A stretch of DNA of 64,000 nucleotides from contig NC_081373.1 of assembly GCF_030684315.1 (NCBI RefSeq), forward strand, positions 24,529,989 to 24,593,988, written 5' to 3'. Both the position numbers and the translations under genes were made by a program. This stretch comes from Stegostoma tigrinum (taxonomy: Eukaryota). Shown one piece after another: positions 1-55,299 of this stretch. The notes below the pieces were generated by a model, which was not told where the DNA came from, ran no database searches, and saw nothing but the letters and a program-made list of their open reading frames with translations. How positions within the stretch are numbered: position 1 is the stretch's first letter; every line of letters begins with the position of its first letter.

Positions 1-682
1 ATTCATTGAGTCACTTTGTGAAATCCCCACTGTTCTTTCTGACACCAGAATGGAGTGTTGTGATTACACAGTATATTGACACAGCAAAGAATTCTCCCAT
101 TTTAAACATTATTGCACCTCAATGACAGGAAGGACCATTGGTAGATCAACATGTTAAGAAAACATGAGCAGAAAACAGCACTGAGCCATCCTCAGGACTG
201 TGGATGTGTCTATACCAGGTCACAAATGCAGCAGACATTACGCATGATTAGGACAACAAAATGCCACAGAAAATGGATTGAATTAGCATATTTATATTTT
301 TGCTGATGCAAAACATTTTCTAGCCGGAAATCTAGTGTCCCAATTTTGTAAAACCTAAGTTATTCAACCCTGAATCTTCTGCTCCTAGCTGCCACCCGTA
401 ACAGTGGGAATCCAGGGGCAAAAGAAGGGAGAAAGTTTCTTTCCTCCAGCAATCTGCTCATTTTAGCTCTTGTTTTTCCAGTAGGATTTCTACTGAGCTG
501 AAAAATGGTTACCTATATGACATCTTGTTTCATAAAGACACCTCATTTATACCTGATCTTGTCAGTTAAGGAAACTGCCTTTTGTGCAACTTTAGAGTAC
601 TAGCTTAAGCCAGCTTGCACTTTTTGAACCCAGTAACCTTGCTAATCCATCCTTCTTCCTAGCAGCTGACTAAAATTAGACC

Positions 683-1306
683 GCTTTGCGGAACACCTAC
701 ACTCTGTTCACAACAAACAACTACACCTCCCAGTCGCGAACCATTTCAACATTCACTGCCCCCAACTCCTCGGACGACTTGTCCAGCCTGGGCCTCCTGC
801 ATTGCCACAATGATGCCACTCGAAAGATGCAAGAACAGCATCTCATATTTCGCTTGGGAACCCCGCAGCCCAAGGGTATCAATGTAGACTTCACAAGCTT
901 CAAAATCTCCCCTCCCCCCACCACATCCCAAAACCAGCCCAGCTAGTCCTCGCCTCCCTAACCATTCCTCCCACCTCAAGACCGCACCCCCATCTCCTAC
1001 CTACTAACCTCATCCTAACCCCGTGACCTGTCCGTCCTCCCTGGACTGACCTATCCCCCACTAACTGCCTACCGACATTCACCTTCACTGGCTCTAACCC
1101 CGCCTCTTTGCCCTATCTGTCTCCTCTTACCTTATCTTCTCCTTTATCCATCCTCTATCCGCCTCCCCCTCTCTCCCCATTTATTTCAGAATCCCCTTCC
1201 CTTCCCGCATTTCTGAAGAAGAGTCCCAACTTGAAACGTCAAGCTTTCCTGCTCCTTTGTTGCTGCTTGGCCTGCTGTGTTCATCCAGCTTCACACCATG
1301 TTATCC
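683..1306 (+). mobile_element. Penelope-like element (PLE), older single-arm 5'-truncated copy (GIY-YIG C-terminus + 3' UTR + degenerate hammerhead)
   Basis: Translates ...HCHNDATRKMQEQHLIFRLGTPQPKGINVDFTSFK, as in the other PLE copies. Ends at TGTTATC. 11-bp TSD AAAATTAGACC at 672-682 and 1307-1317. Confidence 0.9.
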
Positions 1307-1344
1307 AAAATTAGACCAATCTGTTTTTATATTTCACATAGCTC

Positions 1345-1690
1345 CTGCTTCATAATTGTCCAATCATTGGCTTTCTATTTGCACAACTTCACCTTGGCTT
1401 AGCTCATTTGCTCTTGTAACTCTCATTCTGATCTTTGTTTCCTCTAAACTGGATGGCTTCAATGCAGTTCTGACTGATCTTCCATATCTACACTTCATAA
1501 ACATGAGGCATTCTAAAACATGCAGCCCATGTTTTAACTCACAGTGAATCCCATTCCCCCTCTCATCCTGCTATTCAGACCTACATTGGCTCATGGTCAT
1601 GCAATATGTTGATTTAACAATTCTCTGACACATTGTTAAATCCCTTCATCGCCTTGCCCCTCTTTATTCTTGTCGCATTTCCCAATGCAA
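1345..1690 (+). mobile_element. Degenerate L2-clade LINE, ORF2 C-terminal remnant
   Basis: LILIFVSSKLDGFNAVLTDLP resembles the L2 motif LIHAFVTSRLDYCNxLLxGLP. Downstream ctacattggctc resembles LHWL. Confidence 0.55.
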
Positions 1691-1723
1691 CAATCCTCAA
1701 TATACACAAATGGTATATGGGCT

Positions 1724-1833
1724 TGCAGAGGCTGGAGAATCCAAGATAACAAAGTGTGGAGCTGGATGAACACAGCCGGCCAAGCAGCATCTCAGGAGCA
1801 CAAAAGCTGACGTTTCGGGCCTAGACCCTTCAT
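1724..1833 (-). mobile_element. Short PLE 3'-terminal fragment
   Basis: Matches the PLE terminus, with part of the tail and most of the hammerhead motif. No TSD seen. Confidence 0.85.
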
Positions 1834-1844
1834 TTGTCTGTTGC

Positions 1845-2608
1845 CATTGTGATTTTGTTTTTTAAAAAATAGCATAACAGTGATCATTCTTGGAGCATTG
1901 TAGAAAATTGTTTACATTGGGAGAGCACAAACAGTTTACTACATTTTCTTCTGTTAGTAAGTTCCAGAAATTGTATTTTTTGTTAGATTTGGGTAATACC
2001 CATAACTTGGACAATGTTTTATTTTCAGTTCCAGGGTTTGCAGAATTCCTGGCTGAATCTGGATATGAAAACAGTTGCACCTAAAGAACGGAAATAGTTT
2101 AGAACTGTTAAGAATTAGATTGGCTCAGCATAAGGAGTTTAGTTTTAAAGTCTCAGACTGGAGTGTTTGGTTTATACCTAAAACGGTTATTTGAAGCTGC
2201 AACATTCTCAGCTCAGTTGAATAAAGGCTCCAGGAAGAGACTATCAAATTATCAAGTTCGAGAACTGAAGCCAAAGTTACATTAAACTCTATAGTTGGGA
2301 CAGAAAGTGGAATGTTCTCTGGTGTGATTATTGTAAAAGACTGCTTTTGTGTTGATGGGATTAAGTTGTACCCTGTATTTCAAAATCTTTAAACTTTAAA
2401 TATGTGTCCCATGTAAATAGCTTGGTTTATTCTATTTTATCCTCATTTTTTTGCACAATAAACTGCTTTAGGGTTAAACCAAATTTGCAGCACTCCATGC
2501 TTGTATTTCAGTGCAGGACTATCTCCGTAAAACCAAAAAAAAATCTATGAAGCTAGATTATAGTCTGGGATCCAGTTTACCAGTACTAACTTCAGCTGGG
2601 ATCATAAC
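1845..2608 (+). mobile_element. Possible solo LTR
   Basis: AATAAA near 2457, and ends in ...CTGGGATCATAACA, an LTR-like CA terminus. 5' boundary and TSD not identified. Confidence 0.3.
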
Positions 2609-2966
2609 AGATAACGCTGAACATTGACTATCAAAATTCAACTACTTCCCATCAAATAATTTGTAATACTGGAGACATTCAAGGCCTAATGTGATGCTTA
2701 AAGAGGACAAATATTGATCTAAAATGGCAGCCATCATCACCTGACTAGAAAATAAGGTAAGTTTTGTGAAACAAGAATGAAATATCTTGGTGTACAAGAT
2801 GGCTTGGTATCATATTTTGTTTTATACAGCTCCTGTGGAATGCGTTGAGGTATTTCATTACATTAAAAACACTATATAAATATAAATTGCCAGCATTGTC
2901 CATGCTGTTGAGTTACTATTGGCCTCATCTGCAAATGTTGGAGCAGGCAGCAAAGGTGGAATAGTA

Positions 2967-4263
2967 GATAACAAAGTGTGGAGCTGGATGAACACAGCAG
3001 GCCAAGCAGCATCTCAGGAGCACAAAAGCTGACGTTTCGGGCCTAGACCCTTCATCAGAGAGGGGGATGGGGACAGGGAACTGGAATAAATAGGGAGAGA
3101 GGGGGAGGCTGACCGAAGATAGAGAGAAAAGAAGATAGGTGGAGAGGAGAGTATAGGTGGGGGGTAGGGAGGGGATAGGTCAGTCCAGGGAAGACGGACA
3201 GGTCAAGGAGGTGGGATGAGGTTAATAGGTAGGAGATGGAGGTGCAGCTTGGGGTGGGAGGAGGGGATGGGTGAGAGGAAGAACAGGTTAGGGAGGTGGG
3301 GACAAGCTGGGCTGGTTTTGGGAGCAGTGGGGAGAGGGGAAGAGCTGGGCTGGTTGTGTGGTGCAGTGGGGGGAGGGGACGAGCTGGGCTGGTTTTGGTA
3401 TGCAGTGGGGGGAGGGGATGAGCTGGGCTGGTTGTGTGATGCAGTGGGGGGGAGGGGACGAGCTGGGTTGGTTTTGGGATGCAGTGGGGGAAGGCGAGAT
3501 TTTGAAGCTTGTGAAGTCCACATTGATGCCATTGGGCTGCAGGGTTCCCAAGCGGAATATGAGTTGCTGTTCCTGCAACCTTCAGGTGGCATCATTGTGG
3601 CACCGCAGGAGGCCCAGGATGGACATGTCGTCCAAGGAATGGGAGGGGGAGTTAAAATGATTCGCGACTGGGAGGTGCAGTTGTTTATTGCGAACTGAGC
3701 GGAGGTGTCCTGCAAAGCGGTCCCCAAGCCACCCTTGGTTTCCCCAATGTAGACTTCACCAGCTTCAAAATCTCCCCTTCCCCCACCGCATCCCAAAACC
3801 AGCCCAGTTCGTCCCCTCCCCCCACTGCACCGCACAACCAGCCCAGCTCTTCCCCTCCCCCCACTGCATCCCAAAACCAGTTCAACCTGTCTCTGCCTCC
3901 CTAACCTGTTCTTCCTGTCACCCATCCCTTCCTCCCACCCCAAGCCGCACCTCCATTTCCTACCTACTAACCTCATCCCACCTCCTTGACCTGTCCGTCT
4001 TCCCTGGACTGACCTATCCCCTCCCTACCTCCCACCTATACTCTCCTCTCCACCTATCTTTTTTTCTCTCCATCTTCGGTCAGCCTCCCCCTCTCTCCCT
4101 ATTTATTCCAGAACCCTCACCCCATCCCCCTCTCTGATGAAGGGTCTAGGCCTGAAACGTCAGCTTTTGTGCTCCTGAGATGCTGCTTGGCCTGCTGTGT
4201 ACATCTAGCTTTACACTTTATTATCTTGGATTCTCCAGCATCTGCAGTTCCTATTATCACTGA
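2967..4263. mobile_element. Two-armed (inverted) PLE insertion: left arm minus strand without tail, right arm plus strand with tail
   Basis: Left arm 2967-3753 and right arm 3745-4263 join at microhomology CAATGT(A/G)GA. Hammerhead motifs at 3031-3058 (-) and 4134-4161 (+). No TSD found. Confidence 0.92.
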
Positions 4264-19279: not shown

Positions 19280-19705
19280 TGATCGGAACATACTAAATGG
19301 AAGCAAAAATATTTCAAAGTTGCAGAAGTTTTCAGAGCATCTTCCAGCTGCAATTCAGGTGCAGACTTTTCGATGACCTTGCCTTTGACAGAGCTATTCA
19401 TTATTTCATCATTAATCCTCATCCTGAAGTTCTTTGTATCTTTACTGCAATCTTTGACTTTTGTTCACAACTATTTAATCTCTCCTAGCCTCTAACCATC
19501 ACAGACCTTCCCTTCTGTTCTACCTCCCCATCCTCTCCTTTCAAAAATACTCAACCCATAGCTTTACTACTTGCACTCAGTTCCAAAGAAGGATCATTAG
19601 ACCTAAAACATTTTTTCCTCCTCTAAACCCTCCCAATTGGCTGAGTTTTTCCAATGCCTTCTGTTTTAGTTCAGGATTTCCAGCATCTGCAGCATTTTAT
19701 TTTTT
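19280..19705. mobile_element. Old PLE-type (second family) terminal remnant, probably two-armed
   Basis: Right part resembles 45770-46015 and ends ttccagcatctgcagcatttt. Left part looks like a degraded reverse complement. Confidence 0.45.
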
Positions 19706-20766: not shown

Positions 20767-20831
20767 AGATAATAAAATGTGAGGCTGGATGAACACAGCA
20801 GGCCAAGCAGCATCTCAGGAGCACAAAAGCT

Positions 20832-20859
20832 GACGTTTCGGGCCTAGACCCTTCATCAG
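20832..20859 (-). ncRNA. Minimal type I hammerhead ribozyme motif (PLE-associated)
   Basis: Reverse complement reads CTGATGA-A-GGGT-CTAG-GCCC-GAAACGTC. Confidence 0.7.
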
Positions 20860-21943
20860 AGAGGGGGATGGGGGGAGGGAACTGGAATAAATAGGGAGAG
20901 AGGGGGAGGCGGACCGAAGATGGAGAGCAAAGAAGATAGGTGGAGAGGGTGTAGGTGGGGAGGTAGGGAGGGGATAGGTCAGTCCAGGGAAGACGGACAG
21001 GTCAAGGAGGTGGGATGAGGTTAGTAGGTAGCTGGGGGTGCGGCTGGGGGTGGGAGGAAGGGATGGGTGAGAGGAAGAACCGGTTAGGGAGGCAGAGACA
21101 GGTTGGACTGGTTTTGGGATGCAGTGGGTGGGGGGGAAGAGCTGGGCTGGTTGTGTGGTGCAGTGGGGGGAGGGGATGAACTGGGCTGGTTTAGGGATGC
21201 AGTGGGGGAAGGGGAGATTTTGAAACTGGTGAAGTCCACATTGATACCATTGGGCTGCAGGGTTCCCAGGCGGAATATGAGTTGCTGTTCCTGCAACCTT
21301 CGGGTGGCATCATTGTGGCAGTGCAGGAGGCCCATGATGGACATGTCATCAAGAGAATGGGAGGGGGAGTGGAAATGGTTTGCGACTGGGAGGTGCAGTT
21401 GTTTGTTGCGAACTGAGCGGAGGTGTTCTGCAAAGCGGTCCCCAATTCTCTTGATGACATGTCCATCATGGGCCTCCTGCACTGCCACAATGATGCCACC
21501 CGAAGGTTGCAGGAACAGCAACTCATATTCCGCCTGGGAACCCTGCAGCCATATGGTATCAATGTGGACTTCACCAGTTTCAAAATCTCCCCTTCCCCCA
21601 CTGCATCCCTAAACCAGCCCAGTTCATCCCCTCCCCCCACTGCACCACACAACCAGCCCAGCTCTTCCCCCCCACCCACTGCATCCCAAAACCAGTCCAA
21701 CCTGTCTCTGCCTCCCTAACCGGTTCTTCCTCTCACCCATCCCTTCCTCCCACCCCCAGCCGCACCCCCAGCTACCTACTAACCTCATCCCACCTCCTTG
21801 ACCTGTCCGTCTTCCCTGGACTGACCTATCCCCTCCCTACCTCCCCACCTACACCCTCTCCACCTATCTTCTTTGCTCTCCATCTTCGGTCCGCCTCCCC
21901 CTCTCTCCCTATTTATTCCAGTTCCCTCCCCCCATCCCCCTCT

Positions 21944-21971
21944 CTGATGAAGGGTCTAGGCCCGAAACGTC
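21944..21971 (+). ncRNA. Minimal type I hammerhead ribozyme motif (PLE-associated)
   Basis: CTGATGA core, stem II GGGT/GCCC, GAAA, GTC cleavage triplet. Stem III is reduced to the palindrome ACGT, and stem I is only about 2 bp. Confidence 0.7.
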
Positions 21972-22213
21972 AGCTTTTGTGCTCCTGAGATGCTGCTTGG
22001 CCTGCTGTGTTCATCCAGCCTCACATTTTATTATCTTGGAATCTCCAGCATCTGCAGTTCCCATTATCTCCATCTGACACTCCATGGCTCTTATTTGATG
22101 AAGTAAAAGTAAAAGATCTGGGCGTACAGGTCCAGAGATCCCTGAATGTGGCAACTCAGTTGGACAGGAAGGCATACAGCACCCTTGCCTTCGTTGGTCA
22201 TAAAAGTTGGCAG

Positions 22214-22440
22214 GATAATAAAATGTGAGGCTGGATGAACACAGCAGGCCAAGCAGCATCTCAGGAGCACAAAAGCTGACGTTTCGGGCCTAGACCCTTC
22301 ATCAGACTCTCTGATGAAGGGTCTAGGCCCGAAACGTCAGCTTTTGTGCTCCTGAGATGCTGCTTAGCCTGCTGTGTTCATCCAGCCTCACATTTTATTA
22401 TCTTGGAATTCTCCAGCATCTGCAGTTCCCATTATCTCTG
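22214..22440. mobile_element. 227-bp MITE-like two-armed mini-PLE with back-to-back hammerhead motifs
   Basis: Palindromic about 22308. Hammerheads at 22278-22305 (-) and 22311-22338 (+). Tail on the right. Perfect 14-bp TSD ATAAAAGTTGGCAG at 22200-22213 and 22441-22454. Confidence 0.95.
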
Positions 22441-22707
22441 ATAAAAGTTGGCAGATTGTGTTCCAGCTGTACAAAACCTTAGCTTGGTCATATTTGGAAT
22501 ATTGCACGCAGTTTTGTTGCCACACTACCAGAAGGACGTGGATGCATTGGTGAGGATGTAAAGAAGGTTTACCAACATGTTGCCAGGTCTAGAGGGTTTT
22601 AATTACGAGGAGAAGTTGGATAAACTCGGATTGTTTCCACTAGCAAGACAGAAGTTGAGGGGCTGAGGTTGATAGAGATCAATAAAACTATCAGACGCAT
22701 AGATAGG

Positions 22708-22797
22708 ATGACAAAGTGTGAAGCTGGAAGAACACAACAGGCCAAGCAGCATCTCAGGAGCACAAAAGCTGACGTTTCGGTCCTAGACCCGTCATCA
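22708..22797 (-). mobile_element. Single-arm mini-PLE without tail
   Basis: TSD CATAGATAGGATG at 22698-22710 and 22796-22808. Confidence 0.88.
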
Positions 22798-24019
22798 TAG
22801 ATAGGATGGATAGTCAGTGACCTTTTTCCCAGGGTGGAAAGATCAATTACAAGATAGCACAGGTTCAAGGTGAGAGGGGGAATATTTAGGAGAGAGGTGT
22901 GGGGAAACTTTATCACAGAGACGGTGATGGGCGCCTGGAAGGCACTGCCAGTGGAAGTGGTGGAAGCAGGCATGTTTGCAACATTTAAAATGTATCTTGA
23001 TAAATACATGAACATGAAGTGAGCAGAGGGATAGATACTGTGCATGGGCAATAAGTGGCATGTCTATATAACAACTAGGAATCGGCTCGGTGATCCAAAG
23101 GGCCTGGTCCTGAGCTGTACTGTATCGTATAGAAGTCCTAATGAAGACAGTTACATGATCACATTTCTCTCTGCCCTCACCAAAATGACATGTTTGCTGC
23201 TGCCTACCATATTGCATGCACTGGTGTCCATTTTATGGATGTTAACATTAACCAATTTCTAGGCCAACATAGTCAAACTTTGTTCTGTTTACTTACTTTC
23301 ATTTGTATGCATGGTCATGACTGCTTTCATTTGTAAAACAAATGTGTGAACCACAGAGTTTTGCTTTGACAATAATCTCATGAATATCACCCACTGTCTT
23401 ATTCAATTTGCCTTTGTTTGAAAGTCCACATTCACCCCACCCACACATAAATTAATACTAATATTACTTAGCCAAGTTTCAACCATCCTGACTGCATTAT
23501 AATGCAGCAATGGGCCAAGTGAGAAGGAAATAATGGAAATCTGCCGTTTGCCTTAACTCTTTGCTAACTGCAGTAACTTGCCCTTTAGAATGGCAAAAAC
23601 CTTATACTTCTCCTATTTTTTAAATTAAAAGTCAGGAATGAAACACAACCTCCTCCTCAATATATAAGAGTCACTGAAATCATTGGACTGGACTTTGCAA
23701 TAAGCCGTAAAACAAGTTTTCTCACTGTTCTCCTGAAAGAAAACCACAATGTGAGACCCAACAGTGCCTCTGGCAAGAGCTTTACCTCCTTCCACCACCC
23801 AATGAACTGCAATGTCTTTTCATGAAGATTCCCAGAGCAGTGATGGTATCAATCTTTCCAAGTAGCCAATGCCATTGACAAATTCTAACGGACAGTCGAC
23901 CAGCAAGTGAAAAGACACTAAAATTAAACCATTTTAAAGAAATTACCTTGAGCCAGATAATGATTGGGACATACAGATGAATGAATGCTTTAAAAAAATT
24001 ATTGAAAACTTTTCATGTT

Positions 24020-25700
24020 TGTGGCTCAGGAGGGAGGCCATTTAGCCCATCAAATACCTGCTAGTGCTTCACAGAGTAATCCAGTCAGTCACAGTCGTCT
24101 GCTCAATCCATGTACCTTTCAAATTTGTCCATTACAAGGGTTCATCCAAATACATTTTAAACTCATGATAACGAACTGTGGAGCTGGATGAACACAGCAG
24201 GCCAAGCAACATTTTAGGAGCACAAAAGCTGATGTTTCGGGCCTAGTCCCTTCATCAGAAAATCATCATCTTTTCTGATGAAGGGCCTAGGCCCGAAACG
24301 TCGGCTTTTGTGCTCCTAAGATGCTGCTTGCCCTGCTGTGTTCATCCTGCTCCACACTTTGTTACCTTGGATTCTCAAGCATCTGCAGTTCTCATTACCT
24401 CTGATCACATTTTAAACTCATTATTGTTTTTGCTTCCGCCACCCTCACAGACAGAGAGTTCCAGGTCATTACCACTCATTTTGTAATAAAGTTCTTCCTT
24501 ACATTCCTTTTGCCATGCTAGCCCACAAACAAGGCTCCTGAATTCTTGCATCACCAGCTAATTTGCCTGGTCTAAACTTGTCATAATCTTGAACAAATCA
24601 ATAAATCCCACCTCAATGTCTTATGCTCCAAGGAGAGAAATCATTTCCAACCTAACATCGTGGCTACAAATCCTCATCCCTGGAACCTTCACTTACACAG
24701 CGGGAGTAGGTAATTCATCCCTTCAAGACCACTCAGCCATCGTGGCTGATCTTATCCTGATCTCAAACCCATTCTCCTGCCTGCTCCCCACAGCCCTTTA
24801 TCCCTCTTTTAATCAGAAATGTATCTATTTCTTTTTTTAATCCACCACACTACCAGAAGGACGTGGATGCTTTGGCGAGAGCCCCTCTGAGAGAAATAAC
24901 TTCTCATCTCCGTTATGAACCTCCTTCCTCTCACTCTATATCTACGGCTGCTTGTTTGAGACTGTTCCACAAGGGGGAGCATCTGTTCCATGCACACTTT
25001 ATCAATCCGTGTAGGAATTTCATATACCTCAATCAGATCCCCCCCCCAACCCCACCCCCACCCCCCCACCACCATTCATCTGAACTCCAGCGAGTACAAG
25101 CCCAAGCTATTCAACCACCCCTTGTATGGCAGCTCTTTCATCCCTGGAATCAATTTGATCTATCTCCTCCAGTGCTACCCCATCCCTCCTCAAGTAAGGA
25201 AACCGAAACTGGACGCAATGCTCCATGTGTGGTCTCACCAATGACTTAAATAATTGTAATGACAAATTCTGTAACTTTTTTTCTGAATCCTCTCAAGGGT
25301 TTTCCTAAAGAGTGATGACCAGGACTAGACACAATCCTCCACTTAGGGCCTCACCAGTTCTTCATAAATGCTCAGCATAATGTCTACTTTTGTACACAGT
25401 GCCCATATGATTTGTTAACCACAGTTTAATATGTTCTGCAAACTTGGTTAATGTTCATGCATCCTCAGGTACCACTGCTTGTGCAAGCCCTCTGTAATTC
25501 TCCCATTACTGGCACAGGAAGCATAACATAGCTTTTCCCTAACCCTTTTACCAAAGCACATCACCTCATATCTGTAGGTTCGATTTCACCTTCCAGTTGT
25601 CTGCCCTTTCTGTTTATCCATCCTATTGCAGGCAATTTGTACCATCCTCATTGCCTGACGCTTTTCCCAAGTTTGGTACCATAAGTGAAATGTGAAACTC
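24020..25700 (-). mobile_element. Cluster of degenerate CR1 3' fragments
   Basis: GDLIEVYEI...RGRRFITEMRSYFSQRG on the minus strand. Several nested pieces. Confidence 0.7.
24167..24406. mobile_element. Two-armed mini-PLE
   Basis: Inverted arms around spacer tcatcatc, tail on the right. 15-bp TSD ACATTTTAAACTCAT at 24152-24166 and 24407-24421. Confidence 0.92.
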
Positions 25701-34283: not shown

Positions 34284-36202
34284 TAATGGGAACTGCAGAT
34301 GCTGGAGATTCCAAGATAATAAAATGTGAGGCTGGATGAACACAGCAGGCCAAGCAGCATCTCAGGAGCACAAAAGCTGACGTTTCGGGCCTAGACCCTT
34401 CATCAGAGAGGGGGATGGGGGGAGGGAACTGGAATAAATAGGGAGAGAGGAGGAGGCGGACCGAAGATGGAGAGTAAAGAAGATAGGTGGAGAGGGTGTA
34501 GGTGGGGAGGTAGGGAGGGGATAGGTCAGTCCAGGGAAGACGGACAGGTCAAGGAGGTGGGATGAGGTTAGTAGGTAGCTGGGGGTGCGGCTTGGGGTGG
34601 GAGGAAGGGATGGGTGAGAGGAAGAACAGGTGAGGGAGGCAGAGACAGGTTGGACTGGTTTTGGGATGCATTGGGTGGGGGGGAAGAGCTGGGCTGGTTG
34701 TGTGGTGCAGTGGGGGGAGGGGATGAACTGGGCTGGTTGAGGGATGCAGTGGGGGAAGGGGAGATTTTGAAACTGGTGAAGTCCACATTGATACCATATG
34801 GCTGCAGGGTTCCCAGGCGGAATATGAGTTGCTGTTCCTGCAACCTTCGGGTGGCATCATTGTGGCAGTGCAGGAGGCCCATGATGGACATGTCATCAAG
34901 AGAATGGGAGGGGGAGTGGAAATGGTTTGCGACTGGGAGGTGCAGTTGTTTGTTGCGAACTGAGCGGAGGTGTTCTGCAAAGCGGTCCCCAAGCATCCGC
35001 TTGGTTTCCCCAATGTAGAGGAAGCCGCACCGGGTACAGTGGATGCAGTATACCACATTGGCAGATGTGCAGGTGAACCTCTGCTTAATGTGGAATGTCA
35101 TCTTGGGGCCTGGGATGGGGGTGAGGGAGGAGGTGTGGGGACAAGTGTAGCATTTCCTGCGGTTGCAGGGGAAGGTGCCGGGTGTGGTGGGGTTGGAGGG
35201 CAGTGTGGAGCGAACAAGGGAGTCACGGAGAGAGTGGTCTCTCCGGAAAGCAGACAGGGGAGGGGATGGAAAAATGTCTTGGGTGGTGGGGTCGGATTGT
35301 AAATGGCGGAAGTGTCGGAGGATAATGCGTTGTATCCGGAGGTTGGTAGGGTGGTGTGTGAGAACGAGGGGGATCCTCTTGGGGCGGTTGTGGCGGGGGC
35401 GGGGTGTGAGGGATGTGTCGCGGGAAATGCGGGAGACGCGGTCAAGGGCGTTCTCAATCACCGGGTACTGCATCCACTGTACCCGGTGCGGCTTCCTCTA
35501 CATTGGGGAAACCAAGCGGAGGCTTGGGGACCGCTTTGCAGAACACCTCCGCTCAGTTCGCAACAAACAACTGCACCTCCCAGTCGCAAACCATTTCCAC
35601 TCCCCCTCCCATTCTCTTGATGACATGTCCATCATGGGCCTCCTGCACTGCCACAATGATGCCACCCGAAGGTTGCAGGAACAGCAACTCATATTCCGCC
35701 TGGGAACCCTGCAGCCATATGGTATCAATGTGGACTTCACCAGTTTCAAAATCTCCCCTTCCCCCACTGCATCCCTAAACCAGCCCAGTTCATCCCCTCC
35801 CCCCACTGCACCACACAACCAGCCCAGCTCTTCCCCCCCACCCACTGCATCCCAAAACCAGTCCAACCTGTCTCTGCCTCCCTAACCGGTTCTTCCTCTC
35901 ACCCATCCCTTCCTCCCACCCCAAGCCGCACCCCCAGCTACCTACTAACCTCATCCCACCTCCTTGACCTGTCCGTCTTCCCTGGACTGACCTATCCCCT
36001 CCCTACCTCCCCACCTACACCCTCTCCACCTATCTTCTTTACTCTCCATCTTCGGTCCGCCTCCCCCTCTCTCCCTATTTATTCCAGTTCCCTCCCCCCA
36101 TCCCCCTCTCTGATGAAGGGTCTAGGCCCGAAACGTCAGCTTTTGTGCTCCTGAGATGCTGCTTGGCCTGCTGTGTTCATCCAGCCTCACATTTTATTAT
36201 CC
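34284..36202. mobile_element. Largest two-armed PLE insertion (left arm tailed ~1.18 kb, right arm untailed ~0.74 kb)
   Basis: 14-bp TSD TGGAAACCAAGAGG at 34270-34283 and 36203-36216. Hammerheads at 34379-34406 (-) and 36110-36137 (+). Junction near 35460. Confidence 0.95.
34568..35462 (-). pseudogene. PLE polyprotein C-terminal fragment: Cys-rich linker + GIY-YIG endonuclease (Neptune-type)
   Basis: CNRRKCYTC Zn-finger linker, NVVYCIHCTRCGFLYIGETKR (GIY-YIG), DRFAEH, QEQ, GINV. Open frame but 5'-truncated. Confidence 0.9.
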
Positions 36203-36276
36203 TGGAAACCAAGAGGGATTGGATGAGGAATGGGTGACTAACAAAGATGAAGAACAGTGATCAACCAACATTGTAA

Positions 36277-37159: not shown

Positions 37160-37322
37160 GAACAGAAATCGCTGGAAAGGCTCAGCAGGTCTTGCAGCAT
37201 CCGTGGAGATAAAGCAGAGTTAGTGTTTCAGATCAAGTGACCCTTCCTCAGTTCTGAGCTTTTCCAGCAACTTCTGATTTTGTTTCTAATTTACAGCTTC
37301 TGCAGTTCTTTTGGGTATTTTC
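37160..37322. mobile_element. Two-armed mini-element of the older, second hammerhead-bearing family
   Basis: Inverted arms, right arm extended about 35 nt. TSD CCAT(C/T)AGCAAATTA at 37146-37159 and 37323-37336. Confidence 0.75.
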
Positions 37323-37366
37323 CCATTAGCAAATTAATTTGTTTGCCAGCCATCCTTTACATTTTT

Positions 37367-37680
37367 GACAATAAAATGTGAGGCTGGATGAACACAGCAG
37401 GCCCAGCAGCATCTCAGGAGCACAAAAGCTGACGTTTCAGGCCTAGACCCTTCATCAGAGAGGGGGATGGGGTGAGGGTTCTGGAATAAATAGGGAGAGA
37501 GGGGGAGGCAGACCGAAGAAGGAGAGAAAAGAAGTACAAGAGAGTTGCAGTGGGAGAGAGATTCCCTGAGGTTGGTCCGGAGGGAGGAGGGTAACTTCTT
37601 CAGGTTAGGCATCCCTGGAAGATGCTTCGCAGTGAGGTTAAAATTGTATCAGTGATAATGGGAACTGCAGATGCTGGAGA
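37367..37680 (-). mobile_element. Permuted, internally deleted PLE: tail, 5' leader and probable ORF start fused to 3' UTR
   Basis: TSD ACATTTTTGA at 37359-37368 and 37680-37689. Unique segment 37535-37650 follows the tail and contains ATG (MPNLKKLPSSLRTNLRESLSHCNS). Confidence 0.8.
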
Positions 37681-39864
37681 CATTTTTGATCTATTTTTCA
37701 GTCTGAACTGTTTAGATTATGAAAGACCTTAGTCAAAATTCATTTGTCTGGATTATGATTGACAAACATAGCAGTGGTGGAGTCAGTAAAGCACAGAAAA
37801 AGGCCATTCATCCCATTGACTCCATGTCAGTTCTTTGTAGACCAATCCATTCAACCTCATTCCCTGACTCTTACTGTCATATTATACCAAATGTTATCCA
37901 TATCTCCAAGTGGAAGTGAGGACTGGTCAAGGAAGAATTAAATATGCGAAGTGCTTAATTTTCTTTATAAAGGTGCCAGAGAGAAGACAAACCAAATTAA
38001 TTTCAGTGGCAAAAGATTAAAACTAAACTGCAAAAGAAGACTGGAGAAGGAAAATAAATTGTGAAAAGTGGCAGAATTGGAAAAAGTTTAAACGTCAGAA
38101 ATGTTTCCATGAGGCAAGTAACTGAGGGTGAATTCTGTTAGATTTGCCATTGTATAATTGGTTAGCCCAGTGCTTTATAAAAGAATGCCAAATATCTTTG
38201 ATAAACATTTCAAACAAGCTCCACTTAAGTGCCACTTTCAGTGCCAGAAGAAGAAGAAAAAGCAGCTTTTGATGAAATAAATTCCGTTTGGTTACGTTTC
38301 TGCTTCAATACCAACCAGCAGAGGGGAAAAAAATATGGCAAAAGTCATAATAAAACAGGAATGAGATCATTTTTCTGGGGTCTGGCTATTTTGAGCAGCC
38401 TGCAACAAGCAATGTATTTATCTAGGTTTCTATGACCCTTTTCAGGCACTCTGTCAGTGAGCTTAAATTGAGCAGCCAGGCCGGGAGAAAGTTGGAGTCT
38501 GCTCCAGGCCTTGTTGGTCCACAGGGACTAGGAGAATTATTGTTGGCAAGCCTGGCTGGCTCCAGAAGTTGATCCAGTGCCCCCCCACCCCCACTGCCTC
38601 CACCACTTACTGATGCAGCAGCAGGCCAGGCTAGGAATGTCCTTCTAACTTAATTACAGTTCGTGTTGATTGGCTGCTGGAGGTGGCCTTGTTACAAATG
38701 TTGAAATCTCTGGTGAACAAGGGTTACTATTCAAAGAACAAGCTGGAGTCTCACAGCCCATCCATAAACTCCATCATCTGGGCCAACCAGAATCACGCAC
38801 TTTCTTGAAGCTGCCACCTGCATGGTCTTGTTGAGCGAAGTGTTGTTATTGGAGGAAGCAGTGAAGTAAAACAGTTGAAAGTGTTATTAAATGCAGGGTA
38901 AAGTAGGAGCTGAACCATAAAAGGAAAGCATTAAAATAAAGGCTTTTGATGGATAAGAGCTAAAATTACATTACCAACTAAATAATATTAAGGGAGGGCT
39001 GTTGCTCTAATATTGCATCTGTAAGTGAAGCTGAAATATAAGGAGTGATTTTTCAGCGTTCTATGCCCATAAGTGTTCCAAATGCAAGAAATTTGAACCC
39101 ATAACTCCCTCTATCTGATTATCGTCCCTTTCTGCCTCCTCACATTTCATATTGGACGAACTGTACCTGAGAATAAATATTGTATTGTATTAAATCACAT
39201 ATAAGTATGGCTGGCACTGTCCACTCATCTGTGCAGCCAGTTTTCCCCCCATTTTATGCTGGTTACAGGTGAGTAACAATTGAAAACAGTAAGCAGGTGC
39301 TGCAGTGACAAAGTACCAGGAAATAACCTCCCAATCCTGCATGGACAGCTGGTTTGAGCTCCTAAGTATCATCCTTTGTTTCCTTCCTGTTCCTTACTTC
39401 ATCATTTGTCTTGTGACCAAAAATATTTACAGAATTTCATTTTGTTTTCAATAGAGTTCTAGGATGGCTGATTATTGCTGGGAATGAATGTCTAAATAGG
39501 AAACACAGATCTGAGCTTTACTAGGTTAAGGATTTAAATTTTCAGGCAAATTTCTTCAGCCAGTATTTTCATTCAGCATCAGATGGGTCTATGTGCAAGA
39601 GGTTTGTTAATGGATGACGTTTTGCTGTATCTTATTAACTTAAGCAATAGTGTTATCCACAAAGATGCAGTGCTTTTCTTTATGGGTAGGATTGGTGATT
39701 TTTACTGGCTCTACCTTAATGTTGCCTTTATCTGATTCCCTAATTGTGATGACATTGTCCACTCAACTCAAATTCTGACTGAGCCAGAATTTTCTCCATT
39801 TCAGCTGTTACAAAGCAAAGGCAACCCATGTTCTCTCTTGCCAGGAATTTTCCATTTCATACCC

Positions 39865-44329: not shown

Positions 44330-44542
44330 ATAACAAAGTGTGAAGCTGGATGAACACAGGCCAAGCAGCATCTTAGGAGCACAAAAGCTGACATTTCAGG
44401 CCTAGACCCTTCATCAGAAAAGGGTCTAGGCCCAAAACGTCACCTTTTGTGCTCCTAAGATGTTGCTTGGTCTGCTGTGTTCATCCAGCTTCACACTTTG
44501 TTATCTCGGATTCTCCAGCATCTGCAGTTCCCATTATCCCAG
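44330..44542. mobile_element. Two-armed mini-PLE, tail on the right
   Basis: Imperfect TSD ATCT(A/T)GTTATAA at 44322-44333 and 44543-44554. Confidence 0.88.
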
Positions 44543-54349: not shown

Positions 54350-54389
54350 GAGTTCTGAGGAAGGGTTACTGGACTTGAAACGTTAACTC
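54350..54389 (+). ncRNA. Minimal hammerhead motif of the older PLE family, with a 5-bp stem I
   Basis: GAGTT-CTGAGGA-AGGGTTACTGGACTT-GAAACGTT-AACTC. Stem I is GAGTT/AACTC and the triplet is GUU. Confidence 0.6.
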
Positions 54390-55299
54390 TGATTTCTCTC
54401 CACAGACCTGCTGAGCTTTTCCACCAATTTCTACTTTTATCTCCTTATTAAATTTTCACAAGCGCCCTTTTAGGCCACCAAAATAATGGAGCGGAGGGGT
54501 GCAGGTAAAAATTTAAACTTGGGGTGCTTACCACAACATGCTTTTCTTGAGCAAATTTTAACGTAATGTTTCCCAAATTTGTTTTCCCTTCTATGATCCC
54601 CTCTCAAGGCTTGAAAATTGCCAAGAACCAAAGTGGGGATCATTAGTTAGGCCACATCCCTCATTTAAAATGTTAGGATTTAACTGTTGGCACCCATTGG
54701 AGCTTCATGGCAGAATTATGGCCCCAGAATTTCATCTTGTGAACCTGTTGGGGTTAAGCTCCAGTCTTGGGTGATATCATTCTAATATTAGGGCACATTT
54801 TAAGTTGACAAGTTGAGCTGAAAGATGAATAAAGTGGCCTGCTAAGGCAGCAGACAATTCCCTGAAGCTTTTAGTCATCAATGGGTTAAAACATCACTGA
54901 ATAATCACACAAAGCATCAACAGATTTGAGTGACTCAGCAAGTAAGAAAGTAGGCTGGGCTCTAACTATTCGGAACAGAAAGTACAACTTAACATCCCAT
55001 TTAGGAAGAAATTAAGAAATTACTCAGCCACCAAACAACAGGAAAGTGAGTCATCCTTATTACTTCTCCCCTGTATTTCAAATGTCTAATTGTAATAGTG
55101 GCTTTGAAGAAAGCAAATTACATGATAACCTGAAGGGAGTGTAAATTCTCTGGTACTTACCTGCATGTGGTATCACTCAGATCTGCACGCCACCTCAACA
55201 TGACAAACAAATGTTGTGCAATTTCTAGACAGGGTATTATTTCCTATTTCATTCTGTGACTAACTGAAGAGCATCAAGGTCTCAGTCTGTCTTGCAAAC

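Follow-up and report, generated by a model that had tools for sequence, protein, structure and literature searches.

In the sections available to us of three reports on EN+ Penelope-type retrotransposons (PLEs; PMC8557442, PMC3846280, and PMC4209133), full copies of these elements encode an RT that is followed by a C-terminal GIY-YIG, and further features are pLTRs in partial tandem, inverted 5′ arms, a minimal hammerhead, TSDs, and a tail of 30–40 bp on one end only (the last already noted in PMC3846280 and PMC8557442). The function of the PLE hammerhead was called "still unclear" (PMC8557442), and the available text on Anolis Poseidon PAc states that none of the RNA-seq reads terminated at the hammerhead cut (PMC11167929). 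Animal non-LTR retrozymes are described, in the available parts of two reports, as families of units presumably released by cleavage at two hammerheads and then circularized by a tRNA ligase (PMC7229834; bioRxiv 10.64898/2026.07.22.740005). The short PLE copy analyzed here (the mini-copy) and its relatives form a genomic record of PLE copying, which bears on the origin of tandem pLTRs and on the role of the hammerhead.

The mini-copy and its parent element

The mini-copy is PLE sequence of 314 bases on the minus strand of the window (the whole stretch of 64,000 nt that was analyzed), where it occupies positions 37367–37680 and is flanked by a 10-bp TSD (TCAAAAATGT) that overlaps the element by 1 base at the element start and by 2 bases at the element end (Table 1). 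Element positions refer to a circular reference map of 3538 nt made from L031, with position 1 at the first base after the TTATTATC end, the ATG at 75, and the hammerhead cut after 3474. Aligned to L031, the mini-copy was map 7–152 joined to 3371–3538, or 314 (146 + 168) bases of a 320-nt unit, and it started 6 nt past its own end. Coordinates and map bore out a sequence-only reading of the window, which had described a 314-bp PLE copy with a 10-bp TSD and a start approximately 6 nt past its own end. The same reading had found the segment from about 37535 nowhere else in the window; positions 37535–37643 had no second match there, despite dozens of pLTR pieces.

Compared with the genome (G000; 3.2 Gb, 835 contigs), the window-unique segment gave 40 scored matches of 117 candidates. 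Positions 37535–37650 were PLE leader and ORF start rather than unrelated flanking DNA. The leader segment continued into the ORF in four relatives (L002, L005, L028, and L029), which makes the tail the first part of the 5′ leader, as had been proposed from the sequence. L031 is a near full-length, frameshifted copy in which RT motifs (YIDD-type) and a VVY...YIG (GIY-YIG) motif were read by eye; Pfam gave no matches on four fragments. Its linker between RT and endonuclease is CX4CX2C, which fits the CX2-5CxxC linker that defines the Neptune clade in the available text of PMC8557442, and by this motif the element is Neptune-like. The other features found were those of EN+ PLEs: a C-terminal GIY-YIG after the RT, a partial tandem pLTR before the ORF, inverted 5′ arms, an optional tail of 30–40 bp with two end sites, and a minimal type I hammerhead in the pLTR. 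Among the matches listed, single-arm copies ended at site A (38), at site B (31), or elsewhere (4). One full-length copy (L132; one lap of ~3.6 kb) also started at map 5 and ended at site A, and another relative (L032) had a 1.35-kb unit with a repeated joint.

The hammerhead core of the mini-copy (CTGATGA...GAAACGTC) was read from the sequence at 37458–37431, with the cut between 37431 and 37430. Helix I has 2 bp, helix II is closed by a G-U pair, and helix III is the palindromic ACGT. An Rfam scan gave no hammerhead match; there were only sub-threshold miRNA-like hairpins, which were inverted arm pairs. The cut site is seamless, and an uncut site and a re-joined site look the same there. The joint lies ~100 nt from the cut, outside the ribozyme, and is blunt or has one extra A. 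Because it is the only joint in this copy, and blunt or nearly so, the origin of the mini-copy was judged from its relatives. Adjoining the mini-copy, positions 37170–37265 of the window hold a brief stretch left over from another, older repeat that bears a hammerhead, with weak matches near 54355–54440 and 19641–19692.

Table 1. Features of the mini-copy and its flanks in window coordinates, with the basis of each assignment.
Feature	Position	Strand	Basis
TSD, element 5′ side, 10 bp, last base common to element	37680..37689	-	sequence
Tail between two priming sites, map 7–38	37649..37680	-	copy start 6 nt past site A
Priming site B, map about 31–45	about 37642–37656	-	relatives' copies end at A or B
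PLE 5′ leader, map 39–74	37613..37648	-	runs into ORF in L002, L005, L028, L029
Segment from ATG (at 37612) to joint	37535..37612	-	99% match to L031; relatives' joints cluster at map 139–157
Private joint 152/3371	37534..37535	-	1 genome match at ≤2 mismatches
Pyrimidine-rich 3′ UTR part of pLTR, map 3371–3444	37461..37534	-	92–95% identity to seven long window copies
Zone of relatives' stops and untemplated-G joints, map 3441–3449 (putative capped start site)	37456..37464	-	
Minimal type I hammerhead, cut 37431/37430, seamless	37429..37460	-	inspection against available text of PMC4209133; relatives' cut-site joints and A-runs
3′ pLTR part, ends at priming site A (37367)	37367..37428	-	
TSD, element 3′ side, first two bases common to element	37359..37368	-	sequence

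Repeated joints and paired arms in the relatives

Relatives were collected in three sets. A leader 24-mer had 3854 exact genome matches and gave set 1, which comprised 90 places among the matches listed, all on one contig, and 89 loci once L095 (a duplicate of L094) was dropped. A joint pattern (198 matches) gave set 2, with 79 loci among the matches listed after overlap removal, 4 of them left out. A pattern for joints near the hammerhead (190 matches) gave set 3, with 63 loci among the matches listed (59 in listing order, 3 from the previous sets, and L283, which was hand-picked). Sets 2 and 3 are biased by their search patterns. Part of the acceptor signal at map 3449, and of the ends at 3522, came from reference mismatches, and both were called anew against additional references. 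The stops that L088, L091, and L173 seemed to show at the joint were rejected, these copies actually crossing it.

Among the matches listed, a leader-to-3′ UTR joint was present in 65 of the 89 set 1 loci (62 exact types) and occurred more than once in 24 of these 65. Once sorted, 40 of the 65 joint donors lay within map 109–157, and the acceptors fell in map 3150–3475 (same matches). In sets 1 and 2 together, joints agreed within the locus in 38 of the 46 multi-joint loci among the matches listed (automatic key), compared with a chance of 0.027 that two loci share a joint. By eye, three or four of the eight disagreeing loci had the same joint with a later mutation, and L047, which the key counted as agreeing, had joints that differ. 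Second laps within the same arm showed the same joint in 17 cases, a different joint in 3, and ran past it in none (0/20). The partner arm had the same joint in 33 cases, a different one in 3, ran past it in 4, and ended at it in 8; 31 partner arms were too short. Joints were repeated two to nine times per locus, with four in L115 and nine in L238, each array lying inside one TSD. L238 (G000:C2:58041900-58046000) has a 208-bp unit, a private joint, and a 10-bp TSD call, and it lacks an intact ribozyme because its joint falls inside the hammerhead (map 3470).

Judged from the relatives, circle-like copying is well supported. The sequence-only reading had suggested that the mini-copy may be one turn around a hammerhead-made circle; the circle-like copying stands, given joints repeated two to nine times per locus, and the hammerhead-made circle is not supported. 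Its prediction that copy starts would be enriched just past the priming site held modestly. Of 29 single-arm copies, 10 began between −6 and +12 of the priming site that they had used, vs. an expectation of 15% (P = 0.006, for an interval chosen post hoc), so that a near-complete lap is somewhat more common than chance without being dominant. Among starts in map 1–65, 8 of 21 were in map 1–12 (P = 0.03). Splicing and back-splicing were rejected as the source of the joints, which are heterogeneous and retain the GT. Duplication in tandem at a later time was also rejected as a general cause because inverted arms have the same joint and because tandem loci (among them L004, L104, and L135) open with leader sequence ahead of the first joint.

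Of 74 two-arm insertions that could be classified, 65 had one arm ending at site A and the other at site B, vs. 49% expected (P = 4e-12); 16 more insertions had an unclassifiable end. One site per arm matches the two start sites and the extension of both strands described in the available text on PAc (PMC11167929). The window also holds large head-to-head pairs of 5′-truncated copies (2966–4263, 20767–22066, and 34284–36206), in which one arm ends at site A and the other at B, or both end near A. In five loci (L083, L117, L120, L123, and L124), arms ended inside the leader or ORF start, at map 99–159; L117 and L123 have TSDs at these ends, as if primed at an RNA 3′ end.

Joint structure and the nature of the template

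The joints of set 3 marked particular RNA ends. Thirteen loci were joined exactly at the hammerhead cut vs. three over 21 upstream positions (P = 2e-15, sorted by eye), several of them with added A's. In 30 loci, 2–12 extra bases lay inside the hammerhead cut, compared with one match, which was not an A-run, at a control site; of the 85 inserted letters outside the fixed pattern, 76 were A. None of the set 3 inserts had an untemplated G at the hammerhead cut. At map 3435–3452, 19 of 24 inserts ended in an extra G (the test used 18/22, without two miscalls that also end in G). The known behavior of RTs and of RNA decay leads us to infer cleavage by the hammerhead in vivo from the cut-site joints, 3′ ends bearing oligo(A) from the A-runs, and capped transcript starts, copied by the RT, from the extra G. 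In the mini-copy's own class (joints at 3100–3430), no clear excess of G was seen: 17 of 55 cases vs. 21% (P = 0.055) and, by another G count, 34 of 79 vs. 25% (P = 3e-4), these latter G's being mostly donor-templated. Elsewhere, G was present in 13 of 25 inverted arms, where it is possibly templated, and G before the start was not enriched in flank-joined copies (9/25). Together these counts only weakly suggest that all 5′ ends may be capped.

Many short copies and inverted pairs starting at map 3443–3453, the putative start site, were observed in the window (22214–22443, 24183–24420, 44335–44536, and 22713–22801) and look like strong-stop products; ends called at 3446 in older copies are possible alignment artefacts. 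Contigs of a DNA run, which may be the source sample, had joints from 37430 and 37459–37462 to 37647–37654, and no listed piece of it spanned the mini-copy. These joints to the site B region would imply smaller units of about 95–130 nt. Contigs of one run, guessed to be RNA, were mostly 85–95% alike.

Blunt joints were scarce: 4 of 65 vs. 38–44% in simulated blunt joins and, when joints were called exactly, 11 of the 69 clean calls vs. 48% (P = 2e-8); the other 65 of the 134 calls, which carried inserts or had mutations close by, were left out of this count. This depletion points to RT hopping. Behavior at the joint differed by class. Arms of the G-marked class stopped at the joint in 31 cases and re-crossed it in 1; the class joined at the hammerhead cut had five stops and two re-crossings. 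The mini-copy's class had 51 re-crossings and 6 stops, three of the latter in fact crossing by 7–15 nt, and the template of this class thus behaved as continuous. Microhomology favors jumps and seamlessness favors a covalent seam. Weighing the two, we lean toward the reading in which the RT copies a short pLTR-leader RNA in laps, jumping from one end to the other as if the RNA were circular. Seams carry microhomology, A-runs, or an extra G, as polymerase jumps would leave. A template jump had been among the alternatives offered by the sequence-only reading; it fits better than the circle proposed there, with the amendment that the jumps would be end-to-end and repeating.

In the jump reading, the PLE protein would bind RNA covering map 3371 to 152, either as one piece or as two pieces held across the hammerhead. 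The endonuclease would cut the target, and the RT would prime internally at site A, copy to the RNA 5′ end (3371), hop to the 3′ end (~152), and continue through leader and tail, stopping just short of its own priming site and joining the other DNA end. In the relatives, the RT would continue past the same joint for two to nine laps, and priming of the other DNA end, by a second RT, would use site B. The hammerhead would cut in vivo and supply one kind of RNA end among several, and not the seam of the mini-copy. For R2, RT jumps need an overhang of 1–2 nt that matches the template 3′ end (available text of PMC8857657). Because the mini-copy's class re-crosses its joint near-seamlessly, the jump reading must assume ends in register: uncapped ends with short pairing may be held so, perhaps by the first cDNA. 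Folding gave no helix joining map 152 to 3371. An ORF piece of 25–50 nt (map about 1020–1077) was observed inside joints or as a donor end in L003, L005/L032, L023, L072, L097, L107, and L116. Its predicted pairing with map 155–200 (−30.8 kcal/mol in L154 and −14.9 in L155; other good partners exist) suggests a long-range helix that may keep a second RNA fragment attached.

The continuous template would be explained more simply by a covalent circle closed outside the hammerhead, in which a trimmed pLTR-leader fragment is ligated at 152/3371 (for example by RtcB), with a new seam per molecule, and the RT travels around the product. The 51 re-crossings against 6 stops, the blunt joint of the mini-copy, and blunt or complex seams repeated identically two to nine times (L115, L238, and L097) all fit such a circle, and LINE-1 chimeras arise from pre-ligated RNAs (PMC8857657, in the part available). 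We nevertheless regard it as rather unlikely. Ligation predicts about 48% blunt seams and 16% were seen, and some loci (L134 and L043) have two slightly different seams. The sister classes, moreover, join ends that appear to be capped and A-tailed, and RtcB would not join such ends.

A third possibility is a deleted genomic master with two hammerheads, from which a monomer or a circle closed at GUC/AGC would be released as a true retrozyme and copied once around. A model of this kind has been proposed for PLEs (PMC4209133, sections available), the probable in vivo cutting seen in cut-site joints and A-runs is in its favor, a seamless cut site is indistinguishable from a re-joined one, and L304 and L305 combine an A-run at the hammerhead cut with a 15x/338x joint, which fits either a jump or a covalent seam. 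The genome search spoke against it. The joint of the mini-copy (152/3371) had one match in the genome at ≤2 mismatches, the joints of L115, L106, L112, L118, and L238 were confined to their own loci, and that of L138 was found at one further locus. Private joints thus accounted for six of the seven tested (five of six among multi-lap joints), with neither siblings nor parent in this one assembly, although a parent may be lost or extrachromosomal. Sequences did not cluster by joint: divergence was 0.067 among loci sharing a hot-spot joint vs. 0.069 between these loci and the rest (P = 0.25). Subfamily markers agreed across the joint in 34 of 39 loci, compared with 16 of 20 for contiguous sequence. 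Joints therefore arise per event, with both sides usually from one source; three loci (L053, L047, and L199) join units of different subfamilies, which shows that the RT can jump between RNAs. Masters also need first-generation deletions, which are rare (0/20 arms and 4/40 partner arms run past the joint), so that large families would be expected of them, contrary to what was seen. A master is consequently quite improbable. The sequence-only reading had asked whether one junction recurs as a family and had suggested a circle closed at GUC/AGC; neither is supported, the mini-copy's joint occurring once in the genome and the visible seam being 152/3371, not at the ribozyme.

We give equally little credence to a single internal switch of template while a long, normal transcript was being copied (deleting map 153–3370, with the start at 7 an ordinary 5′ truncation): the mini-copy holds a single joint and falls short of a full lap, starts are only modestly enriched near the priming site, and 7/40 partner arms and 3/20 second laps do not follow the first joint, but most testable relatives repeat their joint, and joints fall in the narrow donor and acceptor zones instead of spreading over 3.2 kb.

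End-to-end jumping could be part of a larger scheme, which we put forward tentatively and hold to be possible rather than probable, in which the genome records a whole PLE copying cycle of capped start, hammerhead cut, dimer priming, and end-to-end laps. Transcripts would start capped at the 5′ edge of the hammerhead (map 3443–3449) and be cut by it at 3474, so that the two ends would overlap by about 30 nt, much as in a retroviral R region. Both target ends would be primed by a protein dimer at two adjacent sites on one RNA, and each RT would run to the 5′ end, transfer to the 3′ end, and lap again. Long RNAs would yield pLTR tandems and short RNAs private retrozyme-like arrays, RNA ligation not being needed.

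Comparison with known systems

Single deletions are described in the sections available on EN+ PLEs (PMC8557442, PMC3846280, and PMC4209133); the relatives here are mostly ORF-less mini-units with private, repeated joints. We found no description of private repeated joints or of A-runs at PLE hammerhead cuts in the titles and main text passages of the open-access literature. PAc in vitro (Frangieh et al. 2024, PMC11167929, available text) is alike in that initiation is internal and uses two neighboring sites, one on either side of the tail, both strands of the target are extended, RNA downstream of the start is required, and a dimer is predicted. It differs in that cleavage was not needed, cut-site reads were missing, and end-to-end jumps were not reported there, whereas the genome holds probable cut-site ends, A-tails, and one site per arm. 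The copies may thus serve as in vivo fossils of hammerhead cleavage, of A-tailed and probably capped ends, of one priming site per arm, and of multi-lap copying. Circle vs. jump becomes directly testable with the 320-nt RNA and purified protein.

Two further systems are alike by inference, both from the text available. DRT2 makes tandem, concatemeric cDNA from linear RNA in a rolling-circle-like manner (PMC12039810); it is a bacterial defense RT with fixed template bounds, whereas the bounds of the PLE relatives vary per molecule and their products insert in chromosomes. R2 template jumping is aided by pairing of 1–2 nt (PMC8857657).

The mini-copy also has a likeness to animal non-LTR retrozymes, which, in the parts of PMC7229834 and bioRxiv 10.64898/2026.07.22.740005 available, are non-coding, PLE pLTR-derived units of 170–400 nt that contain a type I hammerhead and occur singly or in short tandem runs. 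The 320-nt unit of the mini-copy lies within that size range (about 170–400 nt; PMC7229834). Retrozymes are also recognized by at least two tandem units, each with a complete hammerhead (bioRxiv 10.64898/2026.07.22.740005); the mini-copy has one, minimal hammerhead, with its seam elsewhere, and the two-hammerhead tandem arrangement was found in relatives such as L115, L135, and L082. Nor does the mini-copy belong to a family with a shared unit, its joint being unique and five of six others single-locus. The mini-copy behaves much as a retrozyme monomer would, yet it lacks the second hammerhead and the shared family. The private arrays of the relatives suggest a possible route by which retrozyme arrays may be born in one insertion event. 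The mini-copy is one variant among the mini-elements derived from PLEs; what makes it of interest is the mechanism that it and its relatives record.
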